Sequence record: OZ035799.1
Length of the DNA: 64,000 nt
Origin: Justusliebigvirus alia
Direction: 5' to 3' (one strand)
A program made the position numbers and the translations under genes. Shown here piece by piece: positions 8,433 to 31,009 of the stretch. The notes under the pieces are model-generated. The model had not been told where the DNA came from. It ran no database searches and saw only the letters and a program-made list of their open reading frames with translations. Numbering within the stretch: the first letter of the stretch is position 1; every line of letters starts with the position of its first letter.

Positions 8433-8440
8433 ATTTTCTC

Positions 8441-15140: not shown

Positions 15141-15813
15141 GTTTTTGAGCCTCCTCATAAGAGATAAAAGTTTTACCATTGCGAAGATCCTCCAGTGATT
15201 GTTTATATTGTTCCCAGTTTACACCAATCCCCTGTTCTTTCTCTTCTTTTGACAGATTCGCAAAAGGTAAAGGATTGTCTCCAAACACATCGTCAGGATG
15301 GATAAACGCCATAATTCGAATAGGACATGGTACGCCTTGAATACCTCGGTTCAAACCTGCCAGTGGAACGCGATGAATCCACTCTGCATCTTCATATCCA
15401 TAACCGTGGGTGTATGAGCGGAAATAGCCAGCTTTCTCAATAACTGCACGGGAATACATACCAAACTGGCACATTCCTAGCTCCCAAATAACCACTTCCC
15501 CTTCAATACCTTTTACTTTATCTTTAAAGTATTCAGGCATACCAAAGAAATCCCAACCATTTTCCTTCGCCTGTTTTACAAAATATGTTTCCCAACCTTG
15601 AACAACAGGATAGCAATCATCATCAAAAATAAACCAGTAATCATACCCTTCATCATAAAACTTTTTCATCAGTTCATTACGGGCATATGCAACACCTTTT
15701 CGTTCACGATCATACTGCACAACAAAAGTAGCATTAGGATCAGTCACAAGATAATCTTTAAGAGGACGCTTACCTACAGTAATAACACCAACACCGATTT
15801 TTGTATTTTCCAA
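15127..15813 (-). CDS. glycosyltransferase family 2-like
   Basis: 228 aa; TTG start 5 nt after AAGGAG; DxD-type FIFDDDCYP and YGYEDAEW motifs. Confidence 0.55.
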   Translation of the reverse strand: MENTKIGVGVITVGKRPLKDYLVTDPNATFVVQYDRERKGVAYARNELMKKFYDEGYDYWFIFDDDCYPVVQGWETYFVKQAKENGWDFFGMPEYFKDKVKGIEGEVVIWELGMCQFGMYSRAVIEKAGYFRSYTHGYGYEDAEWIHRVPLAGLNRGIQGVPCPIRIMAFIHPDDVFGDNPLPFANLSKEEKEQGIGVNWEQYKQSLEDLRNGKTFISYEEAQKHGKS

Positions 15814-15822
15814 AATAACTCC

Positions 15823-16386
15823 TTAAATAATTTTATTCATGTCTTGACAATGTAAAAGGTGTGAAACAGCTTTCCTAGGATCATCACTACCTAAACGGTA
15901 TGTGTGAAATAAATATAACCCACGTAATAAACCTAGCCTTTTGTTGTTAGCATGTAATGCTTTAGAGAAAATTATATCAAACTGTATTGACCTTTCCTCA
16001 AAAGGTATTTCATTCCACAGGCTCTTACGAAAGAGAAGAAAGAATCCTGCTAAGATAGCATCTGTAGGTACTTCCTCTATTGAGTTTCCCCATTCTAGAT
16101 GTGCTCTTTTTGCAATCTCAATGTGGTGTAATATATTTGGATCTTCACTTCTTTCATTATTAAATAATTGATATGTTGATCCCAATCTATTACAAGATGC
16201 ACCAAGAACATCAAAATCAGGATTTGAACGGACTATTGATTCCAACCAAGCAGGTTGTTCTGGAAGAAGAAACATTGTATCAATGTCTCTTAGGCAAATC
16301 CAACTATCTTCTGGTAAGACACTTATTGTGTCATTGATACCTTTTCCAATATCTCCAGAAAGATAGGGAGTTATGTGAAATATCAT
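15823..16386 (-). CDS. glycosyltransferase-like protein
   Basis: 187 aa; GGAGGGAG RBS; LRDIDTMF acidic motif. Confidence 0.45.
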   Translation of the reverse strand: MIFHITPYLSGDIGKGINDTISVLPEDSWICLRDIDTMFLLPEQPAWLESIVRSNPDFDVLGASCNRLGSTYQLFNNERSEDPNILHHIEIAKRAHLEWGNSIEEVPTDAILAGFFLLFRKSLWNEIPFEERSIQFDIIFSKALHANNKRLGLLRGLYLFHTYRLGSDDPRKAVSHLLHCQDMNKII

Positions 16387-17735: not shown

Positions 17736-18338
17736 TTAGATGTTGTAAACCTTCGTATGAGTTACTACACCATCTTCTACAAAATCAATACGTTCTTGAT
17801 CCGTAACTAGTGCAGACAATACTTTAAATTTAATTGTTACACGTTCAAAAGCTGGTTGACCATCTTTAAGATAATTATGTTCAGTTGTTACTGTCTTGTT
17901 TACAAAATCAACTTTTGCTTTACCGTTTTCACGCAAGTGGAATGTTTTTCCTGCTTTATACACAATTTCAACATTACCTTCGAGAGTAATTCCTTCGAAA
18001 AGTTCACCCTCTTCTTCATTTTCTTCACTTTTGAACAGACGACGAAACTCTTCCATATCAAGATAAACAACATCTTCAGAATAACTATCAGTAAGGTATG
18101 TCTTACCATCCATTAACCCGAAATATTGCCAGATCGCAGAATAAACATCACTAGTTGATCCAAGGGTATCTCTGAGTTTAGTTCCACGGATTACTTCATA
18201 AACTTCAAAATTGAAACCAGACTGCAAAGCATTAAACAGTACATCACTAACTTCTAAAGCATAATCTTCATTGTTGTCAATATCCACAAGAAAATTGCCG
18301 CTACGAATAAGTTTTTGACCTTCTAAAGTAATACTCAT
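17736..18338 (-). CDS. hypothetical protein
   Basis: 200-aa ORF; GAGGAGAA RBS; flanked by stem-loops. Confidence 0.55.
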   Translation of the reverse strand: MSITLEGQKLIRSGNFLVDIDNNEDYALEVSDVLFNALQSGFNFEVYEVIRGTKLRDTLGSTSDVYSAIWQYFGLMDGKTYLTDSYSEDVVYLDMEEFRRLFKSEENEEEGELFEGITLEGNVEIVYKAGKTFHLRENGKAKVDFVNKTVTTEHNYLKDGQPAFERVTIKFKVLSALVTDQERIDFVEDGVVTHTKVYNI

Positions 18339-18390
18339 TGTTTTCTCCTCTTCTATTTAAAATATGCGCCCCGAAGGGCGCTATGATTTA

Positions 18391-18987
18391 TTACTCGAAC
18401 CAATCGTCGCCAGCGCCAAACGCTTTAACTACATCATAAATGTCAAGTCCAGCTTTACCTACACCATATGCTTTCAGTTTCCATTCGTTATCTTCCCGCA
18501 CCAGGGAGGCAACGTGGCAAATGGTATTACCTGCAAGTTCTGGAGCCAAGAAGTCAAAGTCCAGCAGTTCAACGTTACGTTCATCATCGAAGATTTTAAG
18601 GAAACCTTCGGTAGCGTGACCAAGGCGTTTCTTACCCGTTTCGTCATCAATAGTAATTACGAATGCAATTTCCTGTGCTTCAGCAGAGATATTATCCAGT
18701 GTAACATCAATCTGCTCCATTTGCCCTACACCGTCACGAACATCTTCACCTGCAAAAGTAGAACGTTCAGGATCAAATTTCTGTGCGTAGCATACCAAGT
18801 GGCGAGGAGACAACAGTTCCGGCAGACCAGATGCATTGTGTCGGCAAATCAGAGCACTAACATCCAGATCCAGTTTTTCGTTAGATTTCCAAGAGAATTC
18901 CAGACGAATGCGTTTCAGTGCTGGTGCAATCTTTTTCAGAGAAACTTTTTCGCTAGAACCTTTTTTCAGGGAAATTTTCTGAGTCAT
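18391..18987 (-). CDS. terD: TerD-domain protein
   Basis: 198 aa; ISLKKG start, DLDVSA, EIAFVITIDD, EWKLKAYG blocks typical of TerD family. Confidence 0.75.
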   Translation of the reverse strand: MTQKISLKKGSSEKVSLKKIAPALKRIRLEFSWKSNEKLDLDVSALICRHNASGLPELLSPRHLVCYAQKFDPERSTFAGEDVRDGVGQMEQIDVTLDNISAEAQEIAFVITIDDETGKKRLGHATEGFLKIFDDERNVELLDFDFLAPELAGNTICHVASLVREDNEWKLKAYGVGKAGLDIYDVVKAFGAGDDWFE

Positions 18988-19059
18988 AATTTATTATCTC
19001 CTTTGTTGTTAATTTACGTTGTCTATTTTACTAATCTTTTCTACAAAGTCAAGCGTTTT

Positions 19060-19854
19060 TTACGCTTTTGCTCCAAATTTTTTAACCCACTCGCCAAACT
19101 CTTCAGATAGCAGTTTATCGTAAAGTTCTTCGTCAGACAAGGACAAATCTGCAATACCGATAAAATCAACATTATCGTATTCTTTTGCCAAGTCTTTCAG
19201 GAATTTAAAGTTTGCATTACCTACACCAACCATAAACCAGTAAACAGGAGTGTTGCGGTGTTTGTTCAGCAAACTACGTACTGCTGAAGTATCCATGTTC
19301 TCCCCGTCAGTTTGGAAGAAAATCATTGCAGGAGTACGATCAACTTGTGCATCAGTATCTACAACCTGTTCTACAACAGTACGTGTAACTTCTACACGTT
19401 CTTTTTTACCAGTTAGTTTAGCAAGGAAACCCTTAGCCGGAACTTCTTCATATTCAACGACTTCGCGTGTAATATTTTTCGTAGGTACACTACCGAAGTA
19501 TGTACCATAGATCTCTTGCATTACTGGAGCATAAGCTGTACCACCATTGATGCAAACATTAGACATGCAAGAGCCGACATAATCATCATATACATCAGCC
19601 GTTGCAGGAGGCAGTTCAAAAGAAGAACTATTGAAAGCCCACATGTCAATCTGTGCATTATCATCAAACTTCATACCAAACGGCAGCAGCTTACCTACAA
19701 AATCACTAACAGTGCCATCACGATACAGCTCACACATACTCCCCGAAATATCTAAGGCGCTACCGACACGAAGAACAACATCGTTAATCTTTTTCTTACG
19801 CAGAGATACAGTAAGAGTTTCTTGACGTTTTTTAAGACTGATTTTATTGGACAT
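19060..19854 (-). CDS. von Willebrand factor A domain protein (TerY-like)
   Basis: 264 aa; MIDAS motif LDISGSM; AAGGAGA RBS. Confidence 0.55.
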   Translation of the reverse strand: MSNKISLKKRQETLTVSLRKKKINDVVLRVGSALDISGSMCELYRDGTVSDFVGKLLPFGMKFDDNAQIDMWAFNSSSFELPPATADVYDDYVGSCMSNVCINGGTAYAPVMQEIYGTYFGSVPTKNITREVVEYEEVPAKGFLAKLTGKKERVEVTRTVVEQVVDTDAQVDRTPAMIFFQTDGENMDTSAVRSLLNKHRNTPVYWFMVGVGNANFKFLKDLAKEYDNVDFIGIADLSLSDEELYDKLLSEEFGEWVKKFGAKA

Positions 19855-19855
19855 A

Positions 19856-20125
19856 TTATTTCTCCTTTCTGAGTGTAATGTTAGTAACTTCTAAATCCAC
19901 TTCTACCATTTCTGTATCATATGAAATACAGCTAAGTTGACCTCTTTGTGAACCGTTCAGACACATTGCTTGGTTTGTATTAACCTTAATAAACACTAAG
20001 TTTCTGAACGTATCTAAACCAGAATCTTGATAGGCAACATAATATACAAATGTATCACCTACGTCAAGTTCTCCAAAACATTTAGGTTCATCTGATTTGT
20101 CGTCTTTGATATTAAATTTAAGCAC
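19856..20125 (-). CDS. hypothetical protein
   Basis: 89-aa ORF; GTG start after AAGGAGGAG. Confidence 0.45.
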   Translation of the reverse strand: MLKFNIKDDKSDEPKCFGELDVGDTFVYYVAYQDSGLDTFRNLVFIKVNTNQAMCLNGSQRGQLSCISYDTEMVEVDLEVTNITLRKEK

Positions 20126-20681
20126 TATCTCCTCCTTTACCTACTTTCCAACCTAAATAGAAAGCCTCTCTAGTGATTTTTTGCAACTCGTTTAAAGAGA
20201 TAGTTACAACTAAATCATCTTCAATTTCTAGCTTTGAGTCTTCTTCTGTCTCAATGCAAGTATTATGCACTTTGTGGTAAGGATTGTCAACACGTTTAAA
20301 TTTATTATTTTCAGTGCTGAAGAAGCAATCTGGATCTTCTTCCCCATCACCCCAACCCTGGTTAGGATCTTCTTCAGATCTTTCTGTTGGGATCTCGCCT
20401 GTAAAGTGCTCTTCTAATACCAGAGCAATCCCATCTCCAAGATCGGAAGAGAACATCAAATTACAAACTTCTTCCCAAGGCATAGACCACTTAAATCTTT
20501 TACGATTGCCATGTTTATCTTCTTCGTTAGAGAAAACACTACCATAACTATCATAATTCCCATACATCTCTTCGACAACCTTACCACCTTTCAAAAGAAA
20601 TAGGTAGCAAGGAGAGCCATCGAAAGAGGTAGAAAGAGCAGCATTACCAGACTCTTTGCACAAGAAACTAAAACACCCCAT
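20118..20681 (-). CDS. hypothetical protein
   Basis: 187-aa ORF; start overlaps upstream stop. Confidence 0.5.
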   Translation of the reverse strand: MGCFSFLCKESGNAALSTSFDGSPCYLFLLKGGKVVEEMYGNYDSYGSVFSNEEDKHGNRKRFKWSMPWEEVCNLMFSSDLGDGIALVLEEHFTGEIPTERSEEDPNQGWGDGEEDPDCFFSTENNKFKRVDNPYHKVHNTCIETEEDSKLEIEDDLVVTISLNELQKITREAFYLGWKVGKGGDSA

Positions 20682-20881
20682 TATACACCAGCCTTAAGAT
20701 CAATTAAGGCCAAAGTTGTTTCAGAGTGTGTTTGCTCGTCTACAGGTGCAGTCATATGATAATACAAAAAATCTTCGGCATCATACCAATCTGATTCTTG
20801 ACCTTGTTTCCAACCATCAATGAAAGCATCTTCCATAATGGTTTGCAATTCTTCACGAGTTAAGTGAATATCTTTACTCAT
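20681..20881 (-). CDS. hypothetical protein
   Basis: 66-aa ORF; AGAGGAGAA RBS. Confidence 0.45.
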   Translation of the reverse strand: MSKDIHLTREELQTIMEDAFIDGWKQGQESDWYDAEDFLYYHMTAPVDEQTHSETTLALIDLKAGV

Positions 20882-21087
20882 TACACATTCTCCTCTTTTA
20901 CCAATTCCATCGTTGAATTGTCAAAACCATCTTTAGAAGAATAGGTATAGACAGAACGTAGTTCTCGCAGGACAGTGAATACATTAGGATCATCTAACCA
21001 AGTATCCTGGAGGAGAACATAACGATCTTCATTGTCATACTGAACAGCAATCATAGAACCAGACAGTTTGTAAATTTTAATATTCAT
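20881..21087 (-). CDS. hypothetical protein
   Basis: Track ORF starts at GTG 21114; in-frame ATG at 21087 has AAGGAGA RBS. Confidence 0.45.
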   Translation of the reverse strand: MNIKIYKLSGSMIAVQYDNEDRYVLLQDTWLDDPNVFTVLRELRSVYTYSSKDGFDNSTMELVKEENV

Positions 21088-21100
21088 AATATATTTCTCC

Positions 21101-22204
21101 TTAAAGTAGACCACGTTTAACAGTTTGAATCATACCATCTTCAAGAGATTGCACTTCTTGAATGTAATCAATACGAGCAGCACGGGCTTCAGTGTTGATT
21201 CGGTTAGTTTCTTCCAACATTTTAACTAAGTTTTCTTGATCACGACGCAATGTTTCAATATCCAATACTTGACGATTAGCAAGTTGTGTAGCTTCAATTT
21301 GGTTTTGTGCAGCCAGATCACTACCCATTGCAATAGCAGCATTAAATTCATTCAGTACATTGTTCTGCGTATCGGCTGCTTTCTTCTGGCGTAGACTTTC
21401 AATATACATAGAAAAGTTTGCAGAGTAAGCAGGAATAACATTATTCACAATATTACGGGCTGATCGCATCAAACTTGCAGATACTTTCTGCATACTTTGT
21501 ACACGTGGCCCCATCTGAACACACAGTAAGCGTAAGGCTTTCAGGTCTGCAATACGAATTTCAAGCAGATCCATAGTATCACGAGTACGTTGACGCTCTT
21601 CTACCTCATTTTCAGGTAGTGTATTAAGGCGAATTTCTTCTTTTTCATAAGTAGCTGTTAGAAGCTCTATATCCCTGTTTAAGCTAAGAGCATATTTTGC
21701 AATAGCTTCTTCTAAACGTTGCAGATATCGTAAAGAATCTTCTTCTTTTTTCAAGTCTGTTTGGAGTGTCTTTACCAAACCTTCAATACGGTTATTGATG
21801 GTGTCAAATTCTCCAAACAAATCTTCTTTCATACCTAAAACTTTCTTAACTAGTTTACCTAAACCTTTAGATTGTTTAATAGAGTTAGGATCAAGTTGCT
21901 TTGCTTGCTTAATAAGTGCAGTTAAACGTTCACTCATTTCATCTCCCTGAGATGAACGCTGGTGTTTAAGCACTTCAGCATTAAGGTTACGAAGAGTAAG
22001 TCCTGCATCAGCACCAACCTGTTCAATCTCTTCACGAGACATTGGAGGCAGCATTTGTACAGGTCGTGCAACAGCAGGGGCATATACAGGGCTTGCATCC
22101 ATAGCACTTGGAGCAAACAAAGACTTACTTTTTTCTGTTGTTGCCGTGAATACACTCATTTCAGACGGTTTGCTTTTTACGGCACTGATAAAAGGACTGG
22201 ACAT
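21101..22204 (-). CDS. TelA/KlaB-like (toxic anion resistance family) protein
   Basis: 367 aa, helical/coiled-coil; GGAGGAAA RBS; family call from overall pattern only. Confidence 0.45.
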   Translation of the reverse strand: MSSPFISAVKSKPSEMSVFTATTEKSKSLFAPSAMDASPVYAPAVARPVQMLPPMSREEIEQVGADAGLTLRNLNAEVLKHQRSSQGDEMSERLTALIKQAKQLDPNSIKQSKGLGKLVKKVLGMKEDLFGEFDTINNRIEGLVKTLQTDLKKEEDSLRYLQRLEEAIAKYALSLNRDIELLTATYEKEEIRLNTLPENEVEERQRTRDTMDLLEIRIADLKALRLLCVQMGPRVQSMQKVSASLMRSARNIVNNVIPAYSANFSMYIESLRQKKAADTQNNVLNEFNAAIAMGSDLAAQNQIEATQLANRQVLDIETLRRDQENLVKMLEETNRINTEARAARIDYIQEVQSLEDGMIQTVKRGLL

Positions 22205-22272
22205 TCAATTTCCTCCATATTCTTTAGTAGATGGTGATACCTCTGTACCACCATCATAACACAAATTAAGTA

Positions 22273-23124
22273 TTAAACAAACATATCTAAATAATTTGTA
22301 GTAATAAATGCTCCATCTGCTTCCAGATTAACATAACCAGTAGCATTAGTGGTTAAGAAATCCAGATCGAAGGACTCTTTAACACCCCGTACCTCAATAC
22401 GAGAGATATCGAATACAGGTAGTGTAACAGCCTCTTCGTGCAATACCGTACCTTTGTATGTTGCCTTAATGATAAACTTGATATTACCCGTTCCAGCATC
22501 ATACAAAACACTTTCAAACCCTTTGAGAGTATACTTATCACCAGAAGTGAAGTGCAAAGTTGCTTTGTTTACAGTACGTTTCTTACGAGGAGTTCCTTTC
22601 ACACGTTTATGATCACTACGTTTTTTGTACTTAGGAATGAATACAAACGATACATTCTGAAGAAAGGTATCAACATCCAGGATTTTAATATCCTCTGTTG
22701 CAGCAAATTTTGAAGTCGTTGCATCAAAATGCTTTTCCCTGCGATCATACATAAAGATATCAAACCGATCTTCTAAATCAAACAAATTATGTATTTTAAT
22801 TTCAGAATGCTTGCGCATTGCAGCAACCTTGAACTCTTCAAAACGTGGGTGTTCTACAAGTTCTTCAAGTTTTACACCAAAGACAGTATATTGTTTCGAA
22901 GTTTTTTCTGGCGTTGGCATTACAGAAGCATAATCACCGATTGCGCTTTTAAAGCAAAATTGTTCTTGACCTGTATTTTTACCAACGAATTTACAGTATT
23001 CGTCATCGTGCATACTTTCTTTGGTAGTACCAACAAACTCAAAACCATCTTTATTCTTCTCAAGAATTTCTTGATTAAAGATCCAACCTTCCAGGCGATA
23101 CACTTTACCAACTTCTAGTTTCAT
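22273..23124 (-). CDS. hypothetical protein
   Basis: 283-aa ORF; AAGGAGAA RBS. Confidence 0.55.
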   Translation of the reverse strand: MKLEVGKVYRLEGWIFNQEILEKNKDGFEFVGTTKESMHDDEYCKFVGKNTGQEQFCFKSAIGDYASVMPTPEKTSKQYTVFGVKLEELVEHPRFEEFKVAAMRKHSEIKIHNLFDLEDRFDIFMYDRREKHFDATTSKFAATEDIKILDVDTFLQNVSFVFIPKYKKRSDHKRVKGTPRKKRTVNKATLHFTSGDKYTLKGFESVLYDAGTGNIKFIIKATYKGTVLHEEAVTLPVFDISRIEVRGVKESFDLDFLTTNATGYVNLEADGAFITTNYLDMFV

Positions 23125-23159
23125 CTGTTTCTCCTTCTTATTTAATCTGTATTAAATTA

Positions 23160-23750
23160 TTAACGACGACGTGAGCTACTAAAACTACGTTTCGACGAAG
23201 AATAACTTTTCGAAGACTTACTATAAGAGCTAATAGGGCTTGAGTAAGACTTACGAGCAGAGTAATCACTATTCACTTTTGTTGTTGACGGGCGTGAATA
23301 CGTTTGTACACTTTGCTGCTTAATTGTGTTTTGTTTAGTGGTTGTATATGTATTTCCTTGTTTATCATAAAAACTATGCTTTTGTGTTGTATATGCTTTA
23401 CTGTTAGTTGTAGGAGCAGCGTTGTTATTAATAATTGTTGTGCTGCTACCACCATCTCTATAACCGCCACCGCCACTATTACCACTCAACATATGACCAA
23501 GAAGCATACCTGTAGCAAACTCACCTACGCCAGAAGAACCACTGCCGCCTCCTTGCACAACAACTGTTGAAGGTTGTGCAGGTGCTGCTTGAACAACTTG
23601 AGGTGCAGGCTGATTTACATATTGTTCATCTACCATCTGATTTGGTGTTTGTTGGTAACGTTGATTTTGTACATTTTCAGAATCATCACAACCTACCAGC
23701 AATGCACTACCTAATACAACTGCAACAATAAAAGATTTAATGTTTTTCAT
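23160..23750 (-). CDS. lipoprotein with glycine-zipper segment and Ser/Tyr/Lys-rich tail
   Basis: ATG at 23750 (GAGGG RBS) gives signal peptide ending at lipobox LVGC; GMLLGHMLSG glycine zipper. Confidence 0.55.
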   Translation of the reverse strand: MKNIKSFIVAVVLGSALLVGCDDSENVQNQRYQQTPNQMVDEQYVNQPAPQVVQAAPAQPSTVVVQGGGSGSSGVGEFATGMLLGHMLSGNSGGGGYRDGGSSTTIINNNAAPTTNSKAYTTQKHSFYDKQGNTYTTTKQNTIKQQSVQTYSRPSTTKVNSDYSARKSYSSPISSYSKSSKSYSSSKRSFSSSRRR

Positions 23751-23943
23751 TTGTAACCCTCTCATTTAAAGTCTCAACACAATTTTTAAAATCCCTAGAG
23801 AAACAATACATCTGTTCTCCGTTCCTGTTGATAGTAATTGTATGGTTATCAATATATGTTGTCAAGATAAAAATCAAACAAAACAACCCTAGAGCAAAAC
23901 AAATATTTTCAAACAGAATCCAAAGAACACGTAAAACCACCAT
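23737..23943 (-). CDS. small membrane protein
   Basis: 68 aa; GAGGTG RBS; hydrophobic core. Confidence 0.4.
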   Translation of the reverse strand: MVVLRVLWILFENICFALGLFCLIFILTTYIDNHTITINRNGEQMYCFSRDFKNCVETLNERVTNEKH

Positions 23944-23982
23944 CAGATCACCTCAACAAAGCCCCCGAAGGGGCTTAATGAA

Positions 23983-24960
23983 TTAAGCAACAGTCTGGTC
24001 TTCTTTTTCAGGGAAGATTAAACTTGCAATAACACCCAGCCCAAGAGTACCTAACACAATATACATACTGATCGTCGGATCAATGTGTGCTGGCAGGAAA
24101 CTCACTTTTGCGTGCAGAGTTTCTGCAAACGGGTGATACATCAGTTTTACACCCACAAATACCAGGACTACGATAACTGCTTTCTCCAGATGAACCAAAT
24201 ACTTCAGTGCAACACTAAGAACAAAGAACAGAGCACGTAAACCTAAGATTGCACAGAGCATCGAAGAGAACACCAGCAGAGGTTCTTGTGTCACCGCAAT
24301 TACTGCTGGAACAGAGTCTACTGCAAAGATTACGTCAACCATTTCCATTACAAACACACAAACCAGAGCCGGAGTTGCTACACGAACACCATTTTTGATT
24401 GTGAAGAACTTCTCACCATCCATCTGATCAGATACAGGGAACAGCTTACGAACAATGCGAGTAGCCCAGTGTTTAGAGTAATCAACTTCTGCATCATTAT
24501 CCCCAGCGAATACCATTTTAGCCGCACAGAAAAGGATGACAGCACCGAAGAAGATATTAACATACCAGCCCAAACTCAACAAGTAAGTGCCTACTGCTAC
24601 AAACACACCTCGGAAGACAATCGCACCTGCAATACCCCAAAGTAGAATTTTGTGCTGCAAGTGTGTGCTTTTAATACCAAAACTTGCGAAGACTGCCACA
24701 AATACTACTAAGTTATCTACAGAAAGAGATTTCTCCAACACATACCCACTCAAGAACAAGCTCGCAAAATCAGCACCGTGTTGGAAGTATACAAAACCAT
24801 AGTAGGCTAATGATACCCCAATCCAGAAAATTGACCAGCCAATTGCAGATTTAAATGAAATTTCTTTGTTTTCTCTGTGTCCAAAGAAGTCAATACAAAT
24901 CGACAAGACTAAAATACCCACTAAAACAACCACATCAATAATTGGGAAACCCAGTTGCAT
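23983..24960 (-). CDS. terC: TerC-family integral membrane protein
   Basis: 325 aa, multi-pass hydrophobic; signature EKSLSVDNLVVF; AGAGGAGAA RBS. Confidence 0.75.
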   Translation of the reverse strand: MQLGFPIIDVVVLVGILVLSICIDFFGHRENKEISFKSAIGWSIFWIGVSLAYYGFVYFQHGADFASLFLSGYVLEKSLSVDNLVVFVAVFASFGIKSTHLQHKILLWGIAGAIVFRGVFVAVGTYLLSLGWYVNIFFGAVILFCAAKMVFAGDNDAEVDYSKHWATRIVRKLFPVSDQMDGEKFFTIKNGVRVATPALVCVFVMEMVDVIFAVDSVPAVIAVTQEPLLVFSSMLCAILGLRALFFVLSVALKYLVHLEKAVIVVLVFVGVKLMYHPFAETLHAKVSFLPAHIDPTISMYIVLGTLGLGVIASLIFPEKEDQTVA

Positions 24961-25037
24961 TCTTTTCTCCTCTTTAATGCGGAGGACAATCCTCCGCTCT
25001 ATGTCTTATACTATAAACTGTTTTTAAAGAAAGTCAA

Positions 25038-25286
25038 CTAGTTCAGTTCTGTAATTTTAAGTTTATCTTCTTTGTTAATGATAGGGAAAGCTACAGCATC
25101 ACCTACGTCATCAATAAAGCAAATAGCAAGACCACCTTCCACTTTGCTAATCTGACCATTAAAGGCGTGATACGGGGCAGGAACTTGATCTCCATCTTCA
25201 AGGAGAATAGCCTCGTAAACCTTGCCGATAGTACAATCACGAGTGTTTCTAAATTTTTCAAGCACTTCAACATTTACTTTACGCAT
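25038..25286 (-). CDS. hypothetical protein
   Basis: 82-aa ORF; upstream stem-loop GCGGAGGA-CAA-TCCTCCGC. Confidence 0.5.
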   Translation of the reverse strand: MRKVNVEVLEKFRNTRDCTIGKVYEAILLEDGDQVPAPYHAFNGQISKVEGGLAICFIDDVGDAVAFPIINKEDKLKITELN

Positions 25287-25300
25287 ATAAAAATCCTCTC

Positions 25301-25507
25301 TTATTTGTTAGATTGAAAGATACCACGAAGTACCGCAAGAATGAACGTCACACAGACTACACTCCAAAACGTTACAGGAACATGATGCCAGTCTAAGCCG
25401 ATAATGTCAATCATATAATTGTATGCTAAAAGCAGTAGCCAACTAGGGATTAACACAATCAAGAACACAACAATAAAACAACCTAATACTGCTAAAACAC
25501 CTGCCAT
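25301..25507 (-). CDS. small membrane protein
   Basis: 68 aa, two hydrophobic helices; AAGGAGAA RBS. Confidence 0.45.
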   Translation of the reverse strand: MAGVLAVLGCFIVVFLIVLIPSWLLLLAYNYMIDIIGLDWHHVPVTFWSVVCVTFILAVLRGIFQSNK

Positions 25508-25516
25508 ACTTTCTCC

Positions 25517-26233
25517 TTATTTCAGTTTGTAAACAATTACATTTAAACCTTTGTTTACTAGAGTTTCTTCGATCATAAGTTTTACAATATTCCAAGAACC
25601 TCCAGCCAAACCACAACCAAGCATTGGTAAACCTACAATTTTACCGCCTGAAGATACAACATCGTCTCCCATACTATCTAACGCATTATAGATAGCTTCA
25701 TAATTCAGGTCACGCTTGCCTTCCTCACGACGACTATAACCATATTGTCCATATAAATTATAAATTGTCAAATTGTTTTCTGTATACTTGGTAAACGTAC
25801 CTAATTTTTTATAATCACCACGTTTAGTGGCACAATCTGCTTTAAACGCACCAGGCCACTTGCTTTTAATTTTTGGTGCAATACCACTACCCATAGTGCA
25901 AAAACAGTTACAGCAGTGTGCTATAGCGTCTATATCGCCTCTCTCGGCTGCTGCTAAAAGATCACCGTATACCTCAATGATACCTGCTGGATAACTTGTT
26001 ACAATTTCATCTTCCCAGTACATTTTCTCTACACCACCGATCAGTGCAAAGTTTTGTGTAATGCGATCATCAATATAGTTAAGACCTGAAACATACACAG
26101 CGTATTCATCCTGTGCTGTAATACCTTGCACACGAATTCTTAAGACACCATCTTTATCTGTTGCTACACGCCCAAAATCTTTTTCTGTAATATTGGTGAT
26201 AGGATCTCCGAAAGTCATTACTTTATTAGACAT
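25517..26233 (-). CDS. macro-domain protein (ADP-ribose binding/processing)
   Basis: Track ORF starts 26350 inside PRTase gene; ATG at 26233 removes overlap; DAIAHCCNCFCTMGSGIA and GLPMLGCGLAGG resemble macro motifs. Confidence 0.45.
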   Translation of the reverse strand: MSNKVMTFGDPITNITEKDFGRVATDKDGVLRIRVQGITAQDEYAVYVSGLNYIDDRITQNFALIGGVEKMYWEDEIVTSYPAGIIEVYGDLLAAAERGDIDAIAHCCNCFCTMGSGIAPKIKSKWPGAFKADCATKRGDYKKLGTFTKYTENNLTIYNLYGQYGYSRREEGKRDLNYEAIYNALDSMGDDVVSSGGKIVGLPMLGCGLAGGSWNIVKLMIEETLVNKGLNVIVYKLK

Positions 26234-27083
26234 AATAATCCCCTTTAACATTAGATTTGTTGATAATGTTGCTTTCAAAAAATTGACGTAGGAAATCAAA
26301 GTTCTCTTTATATTTTTCAATGTTATTGTAGCCTTCTGCAAGGCAACCAAAGAACAGTTGTTCTACATAATACAAAGGAAGTTGTGAAAGTGCAATTTTA
26401 AAATCAACTTCGCTTTGACTCATTAGATACTTAATAGGACGAACCAAACATTTAGCATCAGTTTCTTGCTTAATCATTTTAATAAAAGCTGCCAGGTTAT
26501 TGATATAGTTGAAGTTAAGTGCAGCTTCGGTATTGGCTTCTGTACCTTCATACTTTGCAAAGTACAGGAAAAACGTATCGTTTTCAACACCTTCTTTGTC
26601 TAAAATTTCAATAAGTTTTTCTTCGTGCGTTCCTGTAATATTAACATCATCAATGAAAATCAGAGTTTTATTACCCCAGAAATCACGATTGATAGAGAAA
26701 GTGTCACCATCGATCAAAGCCTTACGATCTTCTTTGCTAAGAAATCCATAATCATTGATATAGCTCACTTTACGATGAACGATATCCCACTCCACTGGTT
26801 TACCACCTTTGATAGAGATTAGGTAGTTGAGGTGGTCTACAAAATGTTCAGATAACACTGTAGCTGCATTTTTCACATAGTTATATGGAGATGGAATAAC
26901 AACAAAACTTTCATTTACCAGTCGTTCTTCATACTTAGAAAAGAAACTTTCAGCCAGAATGCGCCCCATTCTTTTTGCTGCCTGGTTACTACCAAACTTT
27001 AGTTTGGAATAATCTGCAATGTTAAATTTTGCTTCCTTCAGGTTAGTAAAAGTATTAGCAAAATGTTGAATTTGATTACGCAT
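26226..27083 (-). CDS. type I phosphoribosyltransferase
   Basis: 285 aa; PRPP-binding motif LIFIDDVNITGTH. Confidence 0.65.
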   Translation of the reverse strand: MRNQIQHFANTFTNLKEAKFNIADYSKLKFGSNQAAKRMGRILAESFFSKYEERLVNESFVVIPSPYNYVKNAATVLSEHFVDHLNYLISIKGGKPVEWDIVHRKVSYINDYGFLSKEDRKALIDGDTFSINRDFWGNKTLIFIDDVNITGTHEEKLIEILDKEGVENDTFFLYFAKYEGTEANTEAALNFNYINNLAAFIKMIKQETDAKCLVRPIKYLMSQSEVDFKIALSQLPLYYVEQLFFGCLAEGYNNIEKYKENFDFLRQFFESNIINKSNVKGDYYV

Positions 27084-27732
27084 TAATAAGTTCCTCTTTT
27101 TTAAGTTTAGCCAACAAGTCTTCTGGATTAATAATATGACAGAACTTCATCCCTATGTCAACAGCTTTTCCATCATAGATCAAACTATCTCCAACGTGTA
27201 AGATCTCCTCTGGTGCGAGATCAAACGTTACCATTTCATCAAAAGAGAGTTTAAAAAACCTAGGATCTGGTTTACACAAGCAAAACTCATCAGAAAAATG
27301 CATAAAGTCAAATGGTAATTTTGTCAAGCCAGAATATACAGCTAAGAAACTACCAGGTACAAAATTGGTATTGCTCTTAATACTCAAAGAATAGGTTGAA
27401 CTTAGCTCTTCCAACTTCTTGCAAAGTTCAGGGTTTAATGTTGGAGGATGTTTTATAAACATTGCTAAACAGTCTCTTTTTAACCCATCTACTTTATCAA
27501 GATCAATGTTCAAACGAGCAGAAAGTGTTTCCCAAGCATTTCTAGATGTTCCACAAATGCCTTTTTCTGCTTTTAAATCCAGGAGAGTTTTTACCTCTTT
27601 ATATACGGTAGCTGCTTCTACCTCAGAACAAGAGGCATACTCGGCAATAACCTTGTTGCGTTCTTCTGCATACAAAGGATTAGCAGTAATAAGAGTATTC
27701 CATACATCAAAAGAAATATGCTTAACAGTCAT
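27076..27732 (-). CDS. HAD-superfamily phosphatase
   Basis: ATG at 27732 follows GGAGGA; motif I FDVWNT and motif IV HVGDS..D. Confidence 0.6.
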   Translation of the reverse strand: MTVKHISFDVWNTLITANPLYAEERNKVIAEYASCSEVEAATVYKEVKTLLDLKAEKGICGTSRNAWETLSARLNIDLDKVDGLKRDCLAMFIKHPPTLNPELCKKLEELSSTYSLSIKSNTNFVPGSFLAVYSGLTKLPFDFMHFSDEFCLCKPDPRFFKLSFDEMVTFDLAPEEILHVGDSLIYDGKAVDIGMKFCHIINPEDLLAKLKKEELINA

Positions 27733-27734
27733 TT

Positions 27735-27890
27735 TTAATCCTCCGTCCAAAAGAATATCATCTGCTTAATTTTATTGATCTCTTGATGTAGTAACTTTCC
27801 AGCATGTGATTGATCTTTAATATTGACAGCAAGAATTTCAAGCTCCGTCAGTTTTTCTTGGATAGCTTTATATTCATCATCTGTAAGCAT
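27735..27890 (-). CDS. small hypothetical protein (51 aa)
   Basis: Not in track (<60 aa); ATG after GGGGAAG; fills gap between flanking genes. Confidence 0.3.
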   Translation of the reverse strand: MLTDDEYKAIQEKLTELEILAVNIKDQSHAGKLLHQEINKIKQMIFFWTED

Positions 27891-28093: not shown

Positions 28094-28139
28094 AATACCC
28101 TCCATATAAATAAAGGAGGCTTTCGCCTCCTTTTATCAC

Positions 28140-29300
28140 TTAGTAAGAACGACCACCAAACACATACTCTGTGTAGTTTTTACGTTCTTTGTTTTTAATA
28201 ACAACTTCAATGTTGTTGCCTTTATCATCGGTGAACACAAAGTGATAACCGTCACCACCCATTGTACGGATGTGTTTTTCATCATACGTCAGCAAGATAC
28301 GGTCTACACCCCAGTAGTAGTCACCTTCTTCATCTTTGTCTTCTACTGTAACGACCCCTTCCATTTCAGGAAGATGCTCTTCTCCTAGCTTATGGTCTAC
28401 AGCTACAACATAACGATTACCGCTAAACAAACCCTGTGCTGTCATACCGTCAATATCGGTATCTGCCGAAACATCTCCTGTACGATCTACACCGTTGACT
28501 TTCAGAAGTTTAACTTCTTTTGCAGCATAGCGGTGTTCAGTAATACTGATACCCATTAATGCAAGTGCATCAGAGAATTTGTCATTAGGGTAACGGTTAA
28601 GTTCTTCTACTAATGACTGAACAATATCAAAGTTCAAGTCCACGGACAGATTATAAAGCGTTTCAAAATCTGGTAAAAAGGCTTTGTTCTCCAGATTTTT
28701 AGCCAGATAGTCATCCATAGTAGCTTTAGGTAGTTTCTTATAGCTAAAGCTGTAGAAAATACGGCTAGGGCGATTACGCAAAAATTCTGATACATAACCA
28801 TCATTTTTAGTCAATACAAACAGCTTGTCATAGCCACCAACACCATCCAGCAGGGTAAGCAAACCATCCTGTGCATCTTTTTCAGCATACAGTTTATCAA
28901 ATTCATCGATCATAATCATCACAGGTTGTGTGATTTTAGACATAAAATTGATAAAGCCTTCACCATTAAAAGCACTACCGATAGAAATAGTAGGAATACC
29001 CATTTCACGAAGAGCAGAAGACAGCATTTTAGCTTGCAAAGTTTTACCGCTACCCTTCGTACCCTCAAGGAGAACACCTGTGTTTTTACCTTTACGGCTA
29101 AGGAACGTCTTGATAATACGTTCTGATTTATCATCAGTATCACCGTATGTTACTGAAGGGACTTCCATATCGTTTTTAGGATACAGGAAGAACTCACCAC
29201 TTTGAGTAACACCTACACCAAAAGTTCCTGCTGGAATTTCTTCAATATCTGTGCCAGACTTCTGACGCAGGAAGATTTGATTGCCGAATACTGTAAACAT
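28140..29300 (-). CDS. AAA+ ATPase (paralog A)
   Basis: 386 aa; Walker A GTKGSGKT, Walker B MIMIDEFDK; collinear similarity to the + strand ATPase at 44833-45960. Confidence 0.75.
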   Translation of the reverse strand: MFTVFGNQIFLRQKSGTDIEEIPAGTFGVGVTQSGEFFLYPKNDMEVPSVTYGDTDDKSERIIKTFLSRKGKNTGVLLEGTKGSGKTLQAKMLSSALREMGIPTISIGSAFNGEGFINFMSKITQPVMIMIDEFDKLYAEKDAQDGLLTLLDGVGGYDKLFVLTKNDGYVSEFLRNRPSRIFYSFSYKKLPKATMDDYLAKNLENKAFLPDFETLYNLSVDLNFDIVQSLVEELNRYPNDKFSDALALMGISITEHRYAAKEVKLLKVNGVDRTGDVSADTDIDGMTAQGLFSGNRYVVAVDHKLGEEHLPEMEGVVTVEDKDEEGDYYWGVDRILLTYDEKHIRTMGGDGYHFVFTDDKGNNIEVVIKNKERKNYTEYVFGGRSY

Positions 29301-29320: not shown

Positions 29321-29791
29321 TTAGTCAGATTCCCAAATGTTGTCTTTCTTAATCCACATTCGTTGATTATCTGAACCTCTATAACGTTTCGTTGTTGGTT
29401 GATTCATATCATACTTACCATCTATCACTATGTCAACCAGTTTTTTAATTTTTTCTGGAATTTCTTCAAAAAGATATCCTGTATATAAGACAATATCTTT
29501 TTTGTTTCCAAAACAATCTCTTACCTTTTCAAGAACATACTCTACAGTGTCAATGTTCTCTTTGTCAAGAGGTTCACCACCTAAAACGGTTAATCCTTTA
29601 ATGAAAGGTCGAGATAAATCTTTCAAGATAAGATCTAATGTTTCAGTAGTGAACTCTTGTCCGTAGTTATACGACCAGGCTTTCTGGTTAAAGCAGCCAC
29701 GGCAACCGTGGCTACAACCGCTCACCCACAAAGAGCATCTTACACCGTCACCGTTGAGCATGTCAACAGGTTCATATCCGGCGTAATTCAA
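29321..29791 (-). CDS. nrdG: anaerobic ribonucleotide reductase activating protein
   Basis: 156 aa; TTG start; N-terminus MNYAGYEPVD and radical-SAM CSHGCRGC resemble E. coli NrdG. Confidence 0.85.
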   Translation of the reverse strand: MNYAGYEPVDMLNGDGVRCSLWVSGCSHGCRGCFNQKAWSYNYGQEFTTETLDLILKDLSRPFIKGLTVLGGEPLDKENIDTVEYVLEKVRDCFGNKKDIVLYTGYLFEEIPEKIKKLVDIVIDGKYDMNQPTTKRYRGSDNQRMWIKKDNIWESD

Positions 29792-30729
29792 AAATGTTTC
29801 TCCCTTTCTAATACTTCTTGCATTTTACCTTTATTATAAGGGCGAGAGTTAGGGGCAGAAAGGTATCCTGACACTCTTCTGATTACAGATATAGATTCTT
29901 CCTCATGATTGCCACAACTTGGACACTCGAAGCCTTTAGCTGTTGCCTTAAATTCACCATGAAAACCACATTTGAAACACTGATCTACAGGTTGGTTCAC
30001 GCCAAAATAAGGAATTTTGTTGTAGGCATAATCTACAAGAGTTTCCAGTGCTTGCAAGTTATTTTTAAGGTTTGGTGTTTCTACATAACCTATGTTCCCA
30101 CCATTACTGATTTGTGCAAAACCTTCCTCATAATCCCACTTTTGGAACGGGGTAGTGTGCATCCACACAGGTTGATGGAAAGAGTTTGTCAAGTAGTCAC
30201 GATCAATAGAACCTGGATAGCGATCATTTAATGCTTTGGCAAATTTATAGCACAAGGATTCTGCTGGTGTTCCATACAAACTAAAAGCTAAACCAGAACG
30301 TTCTTTAAATGTGCCACAGATATCCTTCATATATTGAAGGATGTTTTTACCCATTGCTTTTGGATTGGTGTTACCTGGGTATAAAATCTCCATAGCTTCT
30401 GCTAAACCTACATAACCGATACTAATAGAGGCATAACCACCTTCGAATAGCTTACCAATCTCTTCATTAGCTTCTAGTCGAGCTAAAGCCCCTTCCATAA
30501 ACAATGTAGGGTTTTGAGATGCTTTGGTATGTCTAATACGGTTAACACGTAGTATATGTGCCTTATACGCCATCTCCATATGTTGTTCCAACAGTTCAGT
30601 AAATAAGATGCCCTTTTCACGGGACTCTGCTGCAATGATAGGTAAGTTTAAAGAAACCACGCCTAAGTTGAAACGACCATCATATTTTTCACCTTGCTCT
30701 GTTGCATAGTATGACAAGAAACTTCTACA
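29788..30729 (-). CDS. nrdD: anaerobic ribonucleoside-triphosphate reductase, exon 2
   Basis: Frame continues from exon 1 across intron (MG|CRSFLSYY); glycyl-radical motif RVSGYL near C-terminus. Confidence 0.8.
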   Translation of the reverse strand, partial: CRSFLSYYATEQGEKYDGRFNLGVVSLNLPIIAAESREKGILFTELLEQHMEMAYKAHILRVNRIRHTKASQNPTLFMEGALARLEANEEIGKLFEGGYASISIGYVGLAEAMEILYPGNTNPKAMGKNILQYMKDICGTFKERSGLAFSLYGTPAESLCYKFAKALNDRYPGSIDRDYLTNSFHQPVWMHTTPFQKWDYEEGFAQISNGGNIGYVETPNLKNNLQALETLVDYAYNKIPYFGVNQPVDQCFKCGFHGEFKATAKGFECPSCGNHEEESISVIRRVSGYLSAPNSRPYNKGKMQEVLEREKHF

Positions 30730-31009
30730 CATTATGTTCAAAGTGGCTCGCAAGGCCACTCCCGCACCATTACGTGCTGCTGCATGTCACCATGCAGATC
30801 AGACTATATCTTCATGCTTAAAGCATGTCTACCATTTGGGGTGTCATAGGCTTACACCCTACGCTGCTACATTCATCACAGCTAGTCGTTAGGCATTTCG
30901 TAATAGTACCCCCCTTCTTCTGTGTTGGGAGTTCTGTTACGTTTAGCACGGGATTGTCTCGTTGAGAGTTCCCCCGTTTAGGCAGATTTTACATGAGCAG
31001 TTATAGTTT
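30730..31009 (-). ncRNA. group I self-splicing intron (ORF-less) in nrdD
   Basis: 280-nt non-coding insert; exon 1 ends in U, intron ends in G; core CUAAACGGGGGAACUCUC...GACAAUCCCGUGCUAAA resembles T4 td/nrdD intron core; P7-like GACUAG/AUAGUC. Confidence 0.7.

Follow-up and report, generated by a model that had tools for sequence, protein, structure and literature searches.

A conserved Ter-like gene block in the virulent phage Justusliebigvirus alia and its relatives

Why a virulent phage should carry genes of the kinds found in bacterial Ter loci is the question raised by Justusliebigvirus alia, a phi92-like E. coli phage of the Stephanstirmvirinae. The window analyzed here is the whole 64,000-nucleotide stretch taken from sequence record OZ035799.1. 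An initial annotation of its letters and reading frames described about 9 kb of co-oriented genes between primase-helicase and nrdDG genes, and suggested that the phage had co-opted a Ter-dependent system for host takeover, membrane or ion homeostasis, or counter-defense; these suggested functions are speculative, as are those in the literature. The ORF listing bears out this layout: 16 co-oriented minus-strand ORFs fill positions 18391-27750, and the flanking replication and reductase genes are both located; glycosyltransferase, cell-wall hydrolase and AAA ATPase genes also lie between these and the block. The block equals phi92 gp172-gp187, and its base composition is the same as that of the remaining window.

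12142-13914: primase/helicase
18366..18381, minus: terminator-like hairpin GCGCCC-TTCG-GGGCGC, then ATATTTT, directly 3' of TerD
18391..18987, minus: TerD-domain protein (Pfam PF02342, 4e-28)
19060..19854, minus: TerF-type vWA protein (Pfam PF10138, vWA-TerF-like, 1.6e-38)
19856..20125, minus: small ORF, 89 aa, conserved, two copies in phAPEC8
20118..20681, minus: conserved protein, 187 aa
20681..20881, minus: small ORF, 66 aa
20881..21114, minus: small ORF, 68-77 aa
21101..22204, minus: TelA-family helical protein (Pfam PF05816, 8e-34, residues 57-362)
22273..23124, minus: variable filler gene, 283 aa
23160..23765, minus: predicted lipoprotein, signal-like hydrophobic segment, lipobox LVGC then Asp
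23737..23943, minus: small single-pass membrane protein, 68 aa (49% identity in phAPEC8)
23983..24960, minus: predicted TerC/Alx-type polytopic inner-membrane metal-ion transporter (PF03741, 1e-38)
24979..25037, minus: TerC intergenic leader
25038..25286, minus: small ORF, 82 aa
25301..25507, minus: small membrane protein, 68 aa, two hydrophobic segments (60% identity in phAPEC8)
25517..26233 (searched ORF to 26350), minus: macro-domain protein, 238 aa (PF01661, 3e-7)
26226..27083, minus: ComF-like type I phosphoribosyltransferase, PRTase_3 (Pfam, 1.5e-41)
27076..27732 (searched ORF to 27750), minus: HAD-superfamily hydrolase, subfamily IA (PF00702, 7e-6)
27735..27890, minus: small ORF, 51 aa
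27902..28105, minus: small ORF, 67 aa, upstream of the HAD gene
28112..28133, minus: terminator-like hairpin AAAGGAGGC-GAAA-GCCTCCTTT, just 3' of the AAA ATPase gene
29321-29791: nrdG
29788-31867: nrdD

Proteins encoded in the block

Pfam profile searches matched TerD, vWA-TerF-like, TelA, TerC, Macro, PRTase_3 and HAD; every family assignment in the initial annotation holds, and the motifs that it quoted (DISGS, EKSLSVDN, LIFIDDVNITGTH, FDVWNT) are all present. TerD, the TerF-type vWA protein, TelA, Alx-type TerC, PRTase_3 and HAD occur in single copy, accompanied by the macro-domain protein, the lipoprotein and the two small membrane proteins; by hydrophobic-segment analysis, the block encodes four envelope proteins. 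The block is under strong purifying selection, with a pN/pS of about 0.07 overall and 0.02-0.05 in TerD, TelA and TerC. Predicted catalytic and metal-binding motifs are intact across its proteins, with the exception of the acidic Ca2+-binding loop of TerD, which is degenerate (GED-VRDGVGQME vs the canonical GDNxTGEGDGDDE).

TerD aligns with two solved structures, PDB 2kxt (8e-15) and 3ibz; TelA has no sequence relative among solved structures, and is 78% identical to its phAPEC8 counterpart. In the vWA protein, annotated as carrying the MIDAS motif DISGSM, all five MIDAS residues (D35, S37, S39, T106, D183) stay unchanged when it is aligned with homologues from bacteria and phages; compared with the bacterial homologue, it contains an insert of ~50 aa. 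TerC, with its many hydrophobic segments, retains the acidic motifs EKSLSVDN and EMVDVIFAVDSVPAV, and scores 322.8 bits against TIGR03718 (‘TerC/Alx family metal homeostasis membrane protein’; cut-off 246.4). Its nearest comparison is with E. coli Alx and Bacillus subtilis MeeF and MeeY, members of the TerC family that act as Mn2+ exporters and metalation factors (PMC10197570, PMC10550928). Phage TerC exceeds the curated Alx-subfamily cut-off and keeps both acidic intramembrane motifs; at the DNA level, its match to E. coli terC is limited to a 195-nt patch of 68% identity. Unlike alx, the phage gene has no yybP-ykoY Mn2+ riboswitch in its leader (Rfam search), where a short, simple hairpin is found instead. 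This leader comprises a sigma-70-like site (TTGACT-16-TATAGT, 25037-25010), a GC-rich stable hairpin (24997-24979; z of -5.0, and -3.2 in phAPEC8) and a Shine-Dalgarno sequence; promoter-like sites overall occur at chance level. The phAPEC8 leader has an identical layout with a different hairpin sequence, and a promoter is annotated at the corresponding position. The terminator-like hairpins at 28112..28133 and 18366..18381 are proposed as the upstream and downstream boundaries of the block.

The PRTase_3 protein has an intact PRPP loop (FIDDVNITGTH), and D145, D146, T150, G151 and H153 of its motif LIFIDDVNITGTH are invariant in 28 homologues. The HAD assignment passes marginally in Pfam (27.0 bits vs a cut-off of 26.4), and NCBIfam HAD-IA matches are weak; the protein carries motif I FDVWNTL, the K in CKPD, and GDSLIYD, and matches PDB 2om6 (4.6e-9), in which motif I is identical. 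The HAD and PRTase genes overlap by 8 nt, as do the PRTase and macro genes (26226-26233), which adjoin in phAPEC8 too.

The macro domain (30.8 bits vs a cut-off of 22) occupies residues ~85-237 and falls into the TARG1/DarG/SCO6735/BT1257 type: matches to TARG1/OARD1, SCO6735, BT1257 and the DarG macro domain range from 3e-15 to 3.5e-10 (PDB 5e3b, 3e-15; 2fg1; TARG1 4j5r, 3.5e-10), and the PADLOC DarG model matches at 1e-13. Motifs GQ[HY]G and GCGLAGG are shared with SCO6735 and BT1257. Unlike the TARG1/DarG group, the phage protein has an N-terminal extension of ~85 aa and lacks a DarT partner. The positions of the catalytic Lys84 and Asp125 of TARG1 appear not to be kept in the phage protein.

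Among the remaining ORFs, the lipoprotein had been called a glycine-zipper protein; its signal-like segment, LVGC lipobox and glycine-rich stretch, followed by a Ser/Thr/Lys-rich tail, bear out that description only in part, and Pfam, NCBIfam and PADLOC gave no family match. The Asp after LVGC suggests inner-membrane retention of the predicted lipoprotein, whose conservation in phAPEC8 is weak (35%). The N-terminal ~135-aa domain of the 187-aa protein belongs to a widespread phage family that is not Ter-specific and has no Pfam model or fold match; the first 27 residues of the adjacent 66-aa ORF resemble the C-terminus of this protein. The 67-aa ORF, with no Pfam match, is kept upstream of HAD in phAPEC8 (49% identity) and in a phage-like contig (L012). 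No counterpart of the 82-aa ORF was detected in phAPEC8, and the 283-aa filler protein is alignable with phAPEC8 over 83 residues only, at 37% identity.

Counterparts in bacteria and other phages

The closest bacterial comparison is with the Ter systems of Anantharaman, Iyer and Aravind 2012 (terZABCDEF and terXYW, PMC8115787). Precedent for Ter sets that include PRTase and HAD genes, invoked in the initial annotation, was verified in two loci. In the actinobacterium Pedococcus, all six families lie in one chromosomal cluster (L032: TelA, TerD, TerC/DUF475, vWA-TerF-like, TerD, TerD, HAD, PRTase_3 and a second PRTase_3), while in Tannerella (L028) three TerD genes, TerY-type vWA proteins, PP2C and a kinase are linked to HAD-PRTase_3. 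All phage loci examined, and 20 of the 21 bacterial ones, have HAD immediately upstream of PRTase_3. Unlike the bacterial systems, the phage set lacks TerB, multiple TerD paralogues, ATP-grasp and TIM-barrel enzymes, TerY, PP2C and the kinase, and its TerD Ca2+ loop is degenerate; Pfam found no TerB, ATP-grasp or TIM-barrel protein in the block, and PADLOC has no model matching its Ter proteins. Enterobacterial ter plasmids hold no detectable relative of the phage PRTase. The macro gene is a Ter component in none of the bacterial loci examined, and looks like a phage-specific add-on.

Gene order is kept in both related phages searched: phi92 carries the same module at 98% DNA identity with full synteny, and phAPEC8, of the sister genus Phapecoctavirus, has the same order with protein identities of 50-81%. 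Two genes flanking the block in the window, one for an AAA ATPase and one for a 200-aa protein, are additional relative to phAPEC8. The macro protein of the window is also the longer one, and the filler gene preceding TelA differs; at this position phAPEC8 carries a SprT-like gene as well, which is absent from the window. Two unrelated phage-like contigs (L007, L010) combine HAD-PRTase_3 with TerC, TerD and vWA-TerF in differing orders.

Phage Ter systems including PRTase and HAD have been described by Iyer, Anantharaman, Krishnan, Burroughs and Aravind 2021, who proposed a role in superinfection exclusion (PMC7824862); other sets are known from phiKp34 (PMC8386662) and phiPsa374 (PMC9796965). 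Like these virulent phages (Acinetobacter ME3 and Caulobacter phages in the 2021 study), the window encodes TerD, TerC, TerF-type vWA and TelA, and like the more complete published versions it has PRTase and HAD as well. It differs in belonging to a 146-148-kb myovirus infecting E. coli K-12, in packing six single-copy families into 9.4 kb (in Caulobacter phages, the TerD gene at ~171 kb and the PRTase gene at ~199 kb are about 25-30 kb apart), and in coupling a macro gene to the PRTase gene. In the deposited phi92 and phAPEC8 records, genes of the block are already labelled ‘putative stress protein’, ‘tellurite resistance’, ‘TerC’, ‘putative phosphoribosyltransferase’, ‘macrodomain protein’ and ‘HAD-like’. 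Phages of this well-known group thus carry the block routinely, as a conserved module, and the finding, although correct, was already known from these annotations and the 2021 description, with phage Ter systems discussed in all three papers. No unrelated function has been established for the module, so its routine nature leaves the Ter interpretation standing.

Weighing the explanations

Our leading interpretation, held with roughly even confidence, is that the block is a phage version of the bacterial Ter system, a conserved accessory module of the Stephanstirmvirinae for envelope and ion protection and exclusion of rivals. We favor it because the assigned families co-cluster in Pedococcus, with HAD-PRTase_3 adjoining TerD and TerY-type vWA genes in Tannerella; because the whole block is syntenic in Phapecoctavirus with low pN/pS, four envelope proteins and unchanged base composition; because L007 and L010 repeat much of the combination in other orders; and because the bacterial ter/TerC literature and the superinfection-exclusion proposal point the same way. 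The degenerate TerD loop, the missing TerB, ATP-grasp and TIM-barrel proteins, and the lack of a PADLOC model count against it, as does the stand-alone occurrence of some of its parts, described next. A clearly less probable explanation, though one with appreciable weight, is that these are independent accessory genes brought together by chance: a TerC transporter for Mn2+ or other metals, a HAD/PRTase_3 nucleotide or nucleoside cassette near nrdDG, a macro-domain eraser of ADP-ribosylation, and a TelA/vWA/TerD envelope module. Rhizobial plasmids and phages of Rhizobium, Caulobacter and Xanthomonas carry HAD-PRTase_3 with Ter genes absent from the surrounding 9-12 kb or so (on Rhizobium plasmid pRL10 as an isolated two-gene cassette adjoining repA), and the pair is also isolated in one metagenomic phage; the phage pairs often lie near genes of nucleotide metabolism such as those for adenylosuccinate synthetase, NT5C and thymidine kinase. 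The pair is therefore a separable cassette. TerC stands alone in several Cronobacter, Vibrio, Proteus and Pectobacterium phages of ~73-92 kb, has a promoter-like site of its own, and has been swapped across genera independently of its neighbors (95% vs 71% identity), and TelA stands alone in many jumbo phages. The parts can thus occur apart, and the block may not work as a single machine. Chance, however, sits poorly with repeated co-localization of the same families in distant lineages and varied orders, and with whole-block synteny in two genera; nucleotide salvage would be futile if a phosphatase then acted on what the PRTase makes, and PRTase_3 resembles ComF most closely rather than any salvage enzyme.

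We consider it rather improbable that the block serves mainly in counter-defense, with the macro protein reversing DarT-type ADP-ribosylation of DNA or protein, PRTase/HAD destroying or competing for an immune nucleotide signal or PRPP, and the membrane proteins neutralizing depolarizing abortive-infection effectors. The resemblance to DarG and TARG1-type erasers, translational coupling of the macro and PRTase genes, and carriage of the HAD-PRTase cassette by plasmids and phages would fit this role; yet the NCBIfam DarG score (48.9 bits) is far below the equivalog cut-off of 250, the macro protein is of the SCO6735/BT1257 subtype, known anti-defense families gave no match, and the other six proteins correspond in bacteria to host genes rather than anti-host ones. 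Most improbable is cargo conferring host resistance to tellurite, xenobiotics or oxidative stress, as in lysogenic conversion: names such as ‘tellurite resistance’ invite it, and xenobiotic resistance in pseudolysogeny was mentioned as possible by Iyer et al. (PMC7824862), whereas the phage is a virulent myovirus with nothing integrase- or repressor-like in the annotated stretch examined, the set lacks TerB, TerZ, TerA and TerE, and tellurium resistance was judged unlikely for a similar phage set (PMC9796965).

A putative role during infection

If the block is a phage Ter system, TerC and the small envelope proteins would be located in the inner membrane during infection, with TelA, the vWA protein and TerD assembling at its cytoplasmic face. 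PRTase_3 and HAD may convert PRPP and a base, via a ribosyl-5'-phosphate, to a nucleoside-like molecule that would serve as ligand or signal for the membrane complex; the macro protein might trim a ribose-phosphate or ADP-ribose adduct tied to this enzyme pair, or reverse host ADP-ribosylation. Proteins of the TerC/Alx family export Mn2+ and supply metal to secreted enzymes (PMC10550928, PMC10197570), tolerance of polymyxin B and cetylpyridinium needs TerC (PMC9933665), and bacterial ter loci confer phage inhibition and colicin resistance (Whelan 1995, as cited in PMC8386662 and PMC9796965). The infected cell's cation balance and envelope integrity would be held steady, and, until lysis, rivals such as colicins, superinfecting phages or pore-forming effectors of abortive infection would be blocked. 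The most likely role of the block is to guard the envelope and ion balance of the infected cell and to exclude rival phages, the latter being the role also proposed for published phage Ter systems.

Gene content and conservation of the block

The Ter gene set of Justusliebigvirus alia OZ035799.1 lies on a 9.36-kb stretch shared at 100% identity with Justusliebigvirus alia OZ035770.1. More than 50 phi92-like E. coli myoviruses, among them phi92, Paula and the BASEL phage EmilieFrey, match it at 98-99% identity, and in their records it corresponds to phi92 gp172-gp187. The set is no new kind of system but a minimal, single-copy, strongly conserved Ter set. All ORFs of the block are on the minus strand, in agreement with the co-oriented gene set that the initial annotation had claimed at 18391-27732, and the families assigned there (TerD, TerC, TelA, vWA, macro, PRTase and HAD) were all upheld by Pfam profile search.

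Genes of the block with Pfam matches (coordinates, strand, gene, Pfam family, E-value)
18391-18987, minus strand: TerD (PF02342, 4e-28; 98.6 bits against a cut-off of 25.3)
19060-19854, minus strand: vWA-TerF-like (PF10138, 1.6e-38)
21101-22204, minus strand: TelA (PF05816, 8e-34)
23983-24960, minus strand: TerC (PF03741, 1e-38)
25517-26350, minus strand: macro domain (PF01661, 3e-7; 30.8 bits against a cut-off of 22)
26226-27083, minus strand: PRTase_3, 'ComF-like' (PF15610, 1.5e-41)
27076-27750, minus strand: HAD (PF00702, 7e-6; 27.0 bits, barely over the cut-off of 26.4)

In a proposed glycine-zipper lipoprotein, a glycine-rich segment and the lipobox LVGC are present, but the protein has no family match in Pfam or NCBIfam; of two more small proteins of the block, both membrane proteins, one has a single hydrophobic segment and the other has two. 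The genomic context is also as described, with a primase/helicase gene at 12142-13914, nrdG at 29321-29791, and nrdD beyond nrdG. GC content (0.35-0.39) and the negative GC skew equal those of the surrounding leftward-transcribed region, and thus nothing suggests recent acquisition of the block.

Gene order is kept in phAPEC8 (Phapecoctavirus, the sister genus within Stephanstirmvirinae), where HAD, PRTase, macro, a protein with two transmembrane (TM) segments, TerC, a 1-TM protein, the lipoprotein and TelA are followed by a small ORF, a 187-aa protein, an 89-aa protein, vWA and TerD; the named proteins of the window and of phAPEC8 are 50-81% identical in amino acids. Before TelA lies a variable 283-aa gene, of which just one stretch of 83 residues aligns in phAPEC8, a phage that also has a SprT-like gene at this position. 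Synonymous changes greatly outnumber non-synonymous ones (pN/pS 0.07 for the whole block in two within-genus comparisons, and 0.02-0.05 within the genus for TerD, TelA and TerC), and this purifying selection indicates that the genes are clearly in use.

Several further features were observed in the window and its relatives. Residues 1-27 of a 66-aa protein (20681-20881, minus strand) resemble the C-terminal tail of the 187-aa protein (20118-20200, minus strand; 41% identity, E 2e-5, pairwise), which points to a common short helical motif, L..ELQ.I...AF..GWK.G. The anaerobic ribonucleotide reductase gene nrdD (ORFs 29788-30759 and 31001-31867) is split by a group I intron at 30780-31055 (minus strand; Rfam RF00028, 72.3 bits, E 2e-16); in Paula and EmilieFrey it is uninterrupted, at 1.8 kb. 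Relative to the same two phages, the region 13927-16386 (minus strand) is missing one glycosyltransferase ('disaccharide synthase') gene between the primase/helicase and a cell-wall hydrolase, a phi92 gp163 homologue of ∼0.95 kb. Four 'Campylobacter phage' records, MG065645, MG065689, MG065656 and MG065650 (A145, A110a, C3 and B15), are ∼99% identical in the tested proteins to E. coli Justusliebigvirus/Phapecoctavirus phages, and their host labels are probably wrong.

The phi92 genes have been named in this way in deposited annotations for years (see also PMC4690881), the presence of Ter genes in virulent phages has been remarked on repeatedly (PMC8386662, PMC9796965), and phage Ter systems with PRTase and HAD were described, and a role proposed, in a comparative paper (PMC7824862); the finding is therefore correct and already known. 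The additions made here are modest: an invariant, separable HAD-PRTase_3 gene pair, a phage-specific macro gene, an Alx-type TerC without a riboswitch leader, and a quantified purifying selection.

Limits and candidate transcription units

A coding-strand hairpin with a trailing T-rich stretch lies at 28133-28112, right after the upstream AAA ATPase gene, and a second at 18381-18366, right after TerD. The AAA ATPase (28140-29300, minus strand; 386 aa, PF00004, 1e-6), which lies between nrdG and the block, is found in Justusliebigvirus. Both this gene and a 200-aa gene (17736-18338) were excluded as block members because they are missing from phAPEC8.

The gap between an 82-aa ORF and TerC contains, in this order, a sigma-70-like site (TTGACT-16-TATAGT), a stable GC-rich hairpin and a ribosome-binding site. 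In the TerC leader of phAPEC8 the arrangement recurs (TTGACA-17-TAAGAT before GCGGGGA...TCCCCGC), with an annotated promoter. The hairpin (24979-24997, minus strand; 13594-13612 in the phAPEC8 locus, L003) differs in its stem sequence, GCGGAGGA/TCCTCCGC compared with GCGGGGA/TCCCCGC in phAPEC8, and may possibly serve in RNA stabilisation or regulation. The promoter and terminator scan as a whole returned 42 sites against 39 expected, which is the chance level, and so only intergenic sites that phAPEC8 conserves as well were used. Read in this way, the block may comprise two units, one beginning with the small ORFs, continuing with HAD, PRTase and macro and closing with the small membrane protein, the other extending from TerC to TerD; since promoter-like sites are no more numerous than chance, this division is proposed rather than demonstrated.

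Membrane-associated and enzymatic components

Set against the components of Ter-dependent systems as given in papers quoting Anantharaman et al. 2012, the phage block has TerD, TerC, TelA, a MIDAS vWA, PRTase and HAD, and is without the large-locus parts TerB, ATP-grasp, TIM-barrel lyase-like protein and second PRTase, none of which gave a Pfam match among the 16 block proteins and the flanking proteins. Many reduced bacterial and phage versions likewise lack TerB and further large-locus enzymes (PMC7824862).

The TerD protein matches solved Klebsiella and Streptomyces TerD structures (PDB 2kxt, 8e-15). Aligned to 2kxt and 3ibz, it retains the first motif, DLD, but has GED-VRDGVGQME where the canonical Ca2+-binding loop reads GDNxTGEGDGDDE, with about half of the acidic positions gone. 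All five MIDAS residues of the vWA protein are invariant when it is aligned to phage and bacterial homologues, and a PDB sequence search with TelA found no match. TerC scores 322.8 bits over the whole protein against NCBIfam TIGR03718, the TerC/Alx subfamily (curated cut-off 246.4), whose name part 'R_switched' comes from a Mn2+-riboswitch (yybP-ykoY) leader. An Rfam search of the window at gathering thresholds detected no such leader, the group I intron being the sole match, and the TerC leader is ∼50 nt long with one hairpin; the phage TerC is Alx-type but without the riboswitch leader. A recent capture of TerC from E. coli was ruled out, as plasmid and island terC genes match only a 195-nt patch at 68% identity. 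TerC is also ∼95% identical to that of a Phapecoctavirus subset (Mt1B1_P17, tuntematon and vB_EcoM_REC) and ∼71% identical to that of the rest of the genus, which indicates that a TerC allele was exchanged between the two genera independently of neighbouring genes.

HAD matches PDB 2om6, with which it shares the motif FDVWNTL and a Trp at the +2 position from the nucleophile; its subfamily IA motifs I-IV (FDVWNT, SIKSNT, CKPD and GDSLIYD), read from the sequence, are supported by the 2om6 alignment. The PRTase_3 protein combines a PRTase fold with an acidic PRPP-binding loop and a T-G-T after it; PDB sequence searches gave no related solved structure, and no close relatives were found on enterobacterial ter plasmids, only rhizobial and Hymenobacter plasmids matching. 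The macro domain matches SCO6735, BT1257 and human TARG1 (best 5e3b, 3e-15), as well as the macro part of DarG. A DarG antitoxin was rejected as its identity: the protein scores 48.9 bits against a cut-off of 250 for the DarG equivalog NF048014, the match is limited to the macro part of the model (positions 4-147 of 338), leaving out the C-terminal DarT-binding domain, and no DarT-like neighbour was found among the Pfam-searched block and flanking proteins. The HAD and PRTase genes overlap by 8 nt, as do the PRTase and macro genes, suggesting translational coupling. Beside HAD-PRTase_3, the macro gene occurs only in Stephanstirmvirinae and close relatives, and it is absent from the bacterial Ter loci examined; it appears to be an addition specific to the phages, translationally coupled and of the SCO6735/BT1257 subtype.

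Separability of the parts and proposed role

A bacterial scan (one genome per species, with patterns derived from the PRTase alignment) yielded 21 loci, in 20 of which HAD is directly upstream of PRTase_3, some of them beside TerD, TelA, TerC or vWA genes. The Pedococcus cluster (TelA, unknown, TerD, unknown, TerC/DUF475, vWA-TerF-like, TerD, TerD, HAD, PRTase_3, PRTase_3) has the same six families as the phage block, and in Tannerella three TerD genes, two vWA genes (one with TerY_C), a PP2C phosphatase and a kinase precede HAD-PRTase_3, which is followed by a P-type cation ATPase. The bacterial precedent claimed for Ter genes with PRTase and HAD is thus found in these two loci, in agreement with published descriptions (PMC7824862, PMC8115787).

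Elsewhere the pair stands apart from Ter genes, none lying within ∼9-12 kb: on Rhizobium plasmid pRL10, beside repA, and other rhizobial replicons, and in Rhizobium phage TM30, Caulobacter phage CcrColossus, Xanthomonas phage XaC1 and a metagenomic phage, some of these phages having TerD or TelA elsewhere in the genome. Two other phage-like contigs have it adjacent to, or no more than 9 kb from, vWA-TerF, TerD and TerC, with the genes ordered differently. Several Cronobacter, Vibrio, Proteus and Pectobacterium phages of ∼73-92 kb have TerC alone, and many jumbo phages have TelA alone. The pair, TerC and TelA thus occur alone as well as together, so that their association is recurrent, not obligatory, and HAD-PRTase_3 itself emerges from these comparisons as an invariant, separable pair. 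On pRL10, a conjugative plasmid of Rhizobium johnstonii 3841, the isolated pair (8370-9843) is ∼0.9 kb from the partitioning gene repA, and Rhizobium phages contain near relatives of it; the cassette apparently passes between plasmids and phages that share hosts.

Ter systems are common among pathogens, with links to gut and bladder fitness in Klebsiella, and in many large virulent phages, and their biological role has been an old question since the 1990s. Families, intact motifs, selection and synteny were established here for the block; its functional role we infer. In the infected cell, the Ter set would steady the envelope and cation balance and shut out rivals of the phage, and HAD and PRTase would build a nucleoside-like ligand from PRPP, a reading that we judge evenly poised between right and wrong, and essentially the same as that proposed for phage Ter systems by Iyer et al. 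2021 (PMC7824862). For relatives it is established that plasmid ter loci confer phage inhibition and protection against pore-forming colicins (Whelan 1995, as cited in PMC8386662 and PMC9796965). Tolerance of polymyxin B and cetylpyridinium requires TerC in Klebsiella (PMC9933665), and TerC/Alx proteins act in Mn2+ export and the metalation of secreted enzymes (PMC10550928, PMC10197570). No experiment on any phage Ter gene is reported in the literature searched.

That the parts of the block act independently, each with its own role, is rather unlikely in our estimation; their solitary occurrences elsewhere speak for this reading, the order shared with phAPEC8 against it. A block devoted mainly to counter-defence is improbable. 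In a PADLOC scan of the main proteins, the macro domain (DarG) alone rose above noise-level matches, and TerD, vWA, TelA, TerC, PRTase and HAD had zero matches, whether to TerY-P or to other catalogued anti-phage defence systems. The degenerate TerD Ca2+ loop and the absence of TerB set the phage version apart from a plain copy of the classical operon. Host tellurite resistance is very hard to credit as the function of the block. The observation of the initial annotation is confirmed, and its interpretation is supported.

It is conceivable, if doubtful, that HAD-PRTase_3, with the coupled macro gene, is a self-contained mobile-element cassette that would make or dismantle a ribosylated small molecule in conflicts among phage, plasmid and host, the Ter membrane proteins being an optional sensor or effector arm. 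The 'Ter metabolite' was predicted in 2012, and the literature searched contains no identification of it; were the cassette reading true, the single-copy, 9.4-kb version in K-12 phages would be the simplest available system for this purpose. This minimal Ter set is found in phages able to grow on E. coli K-12, BASEL collection members among them, which makes deletion genetics, exclusion assays and identification of the metabolite practical, and the separable, invariant HAD-PRTase_3 pair and the phage-specific macro gene narrow the first experiments.
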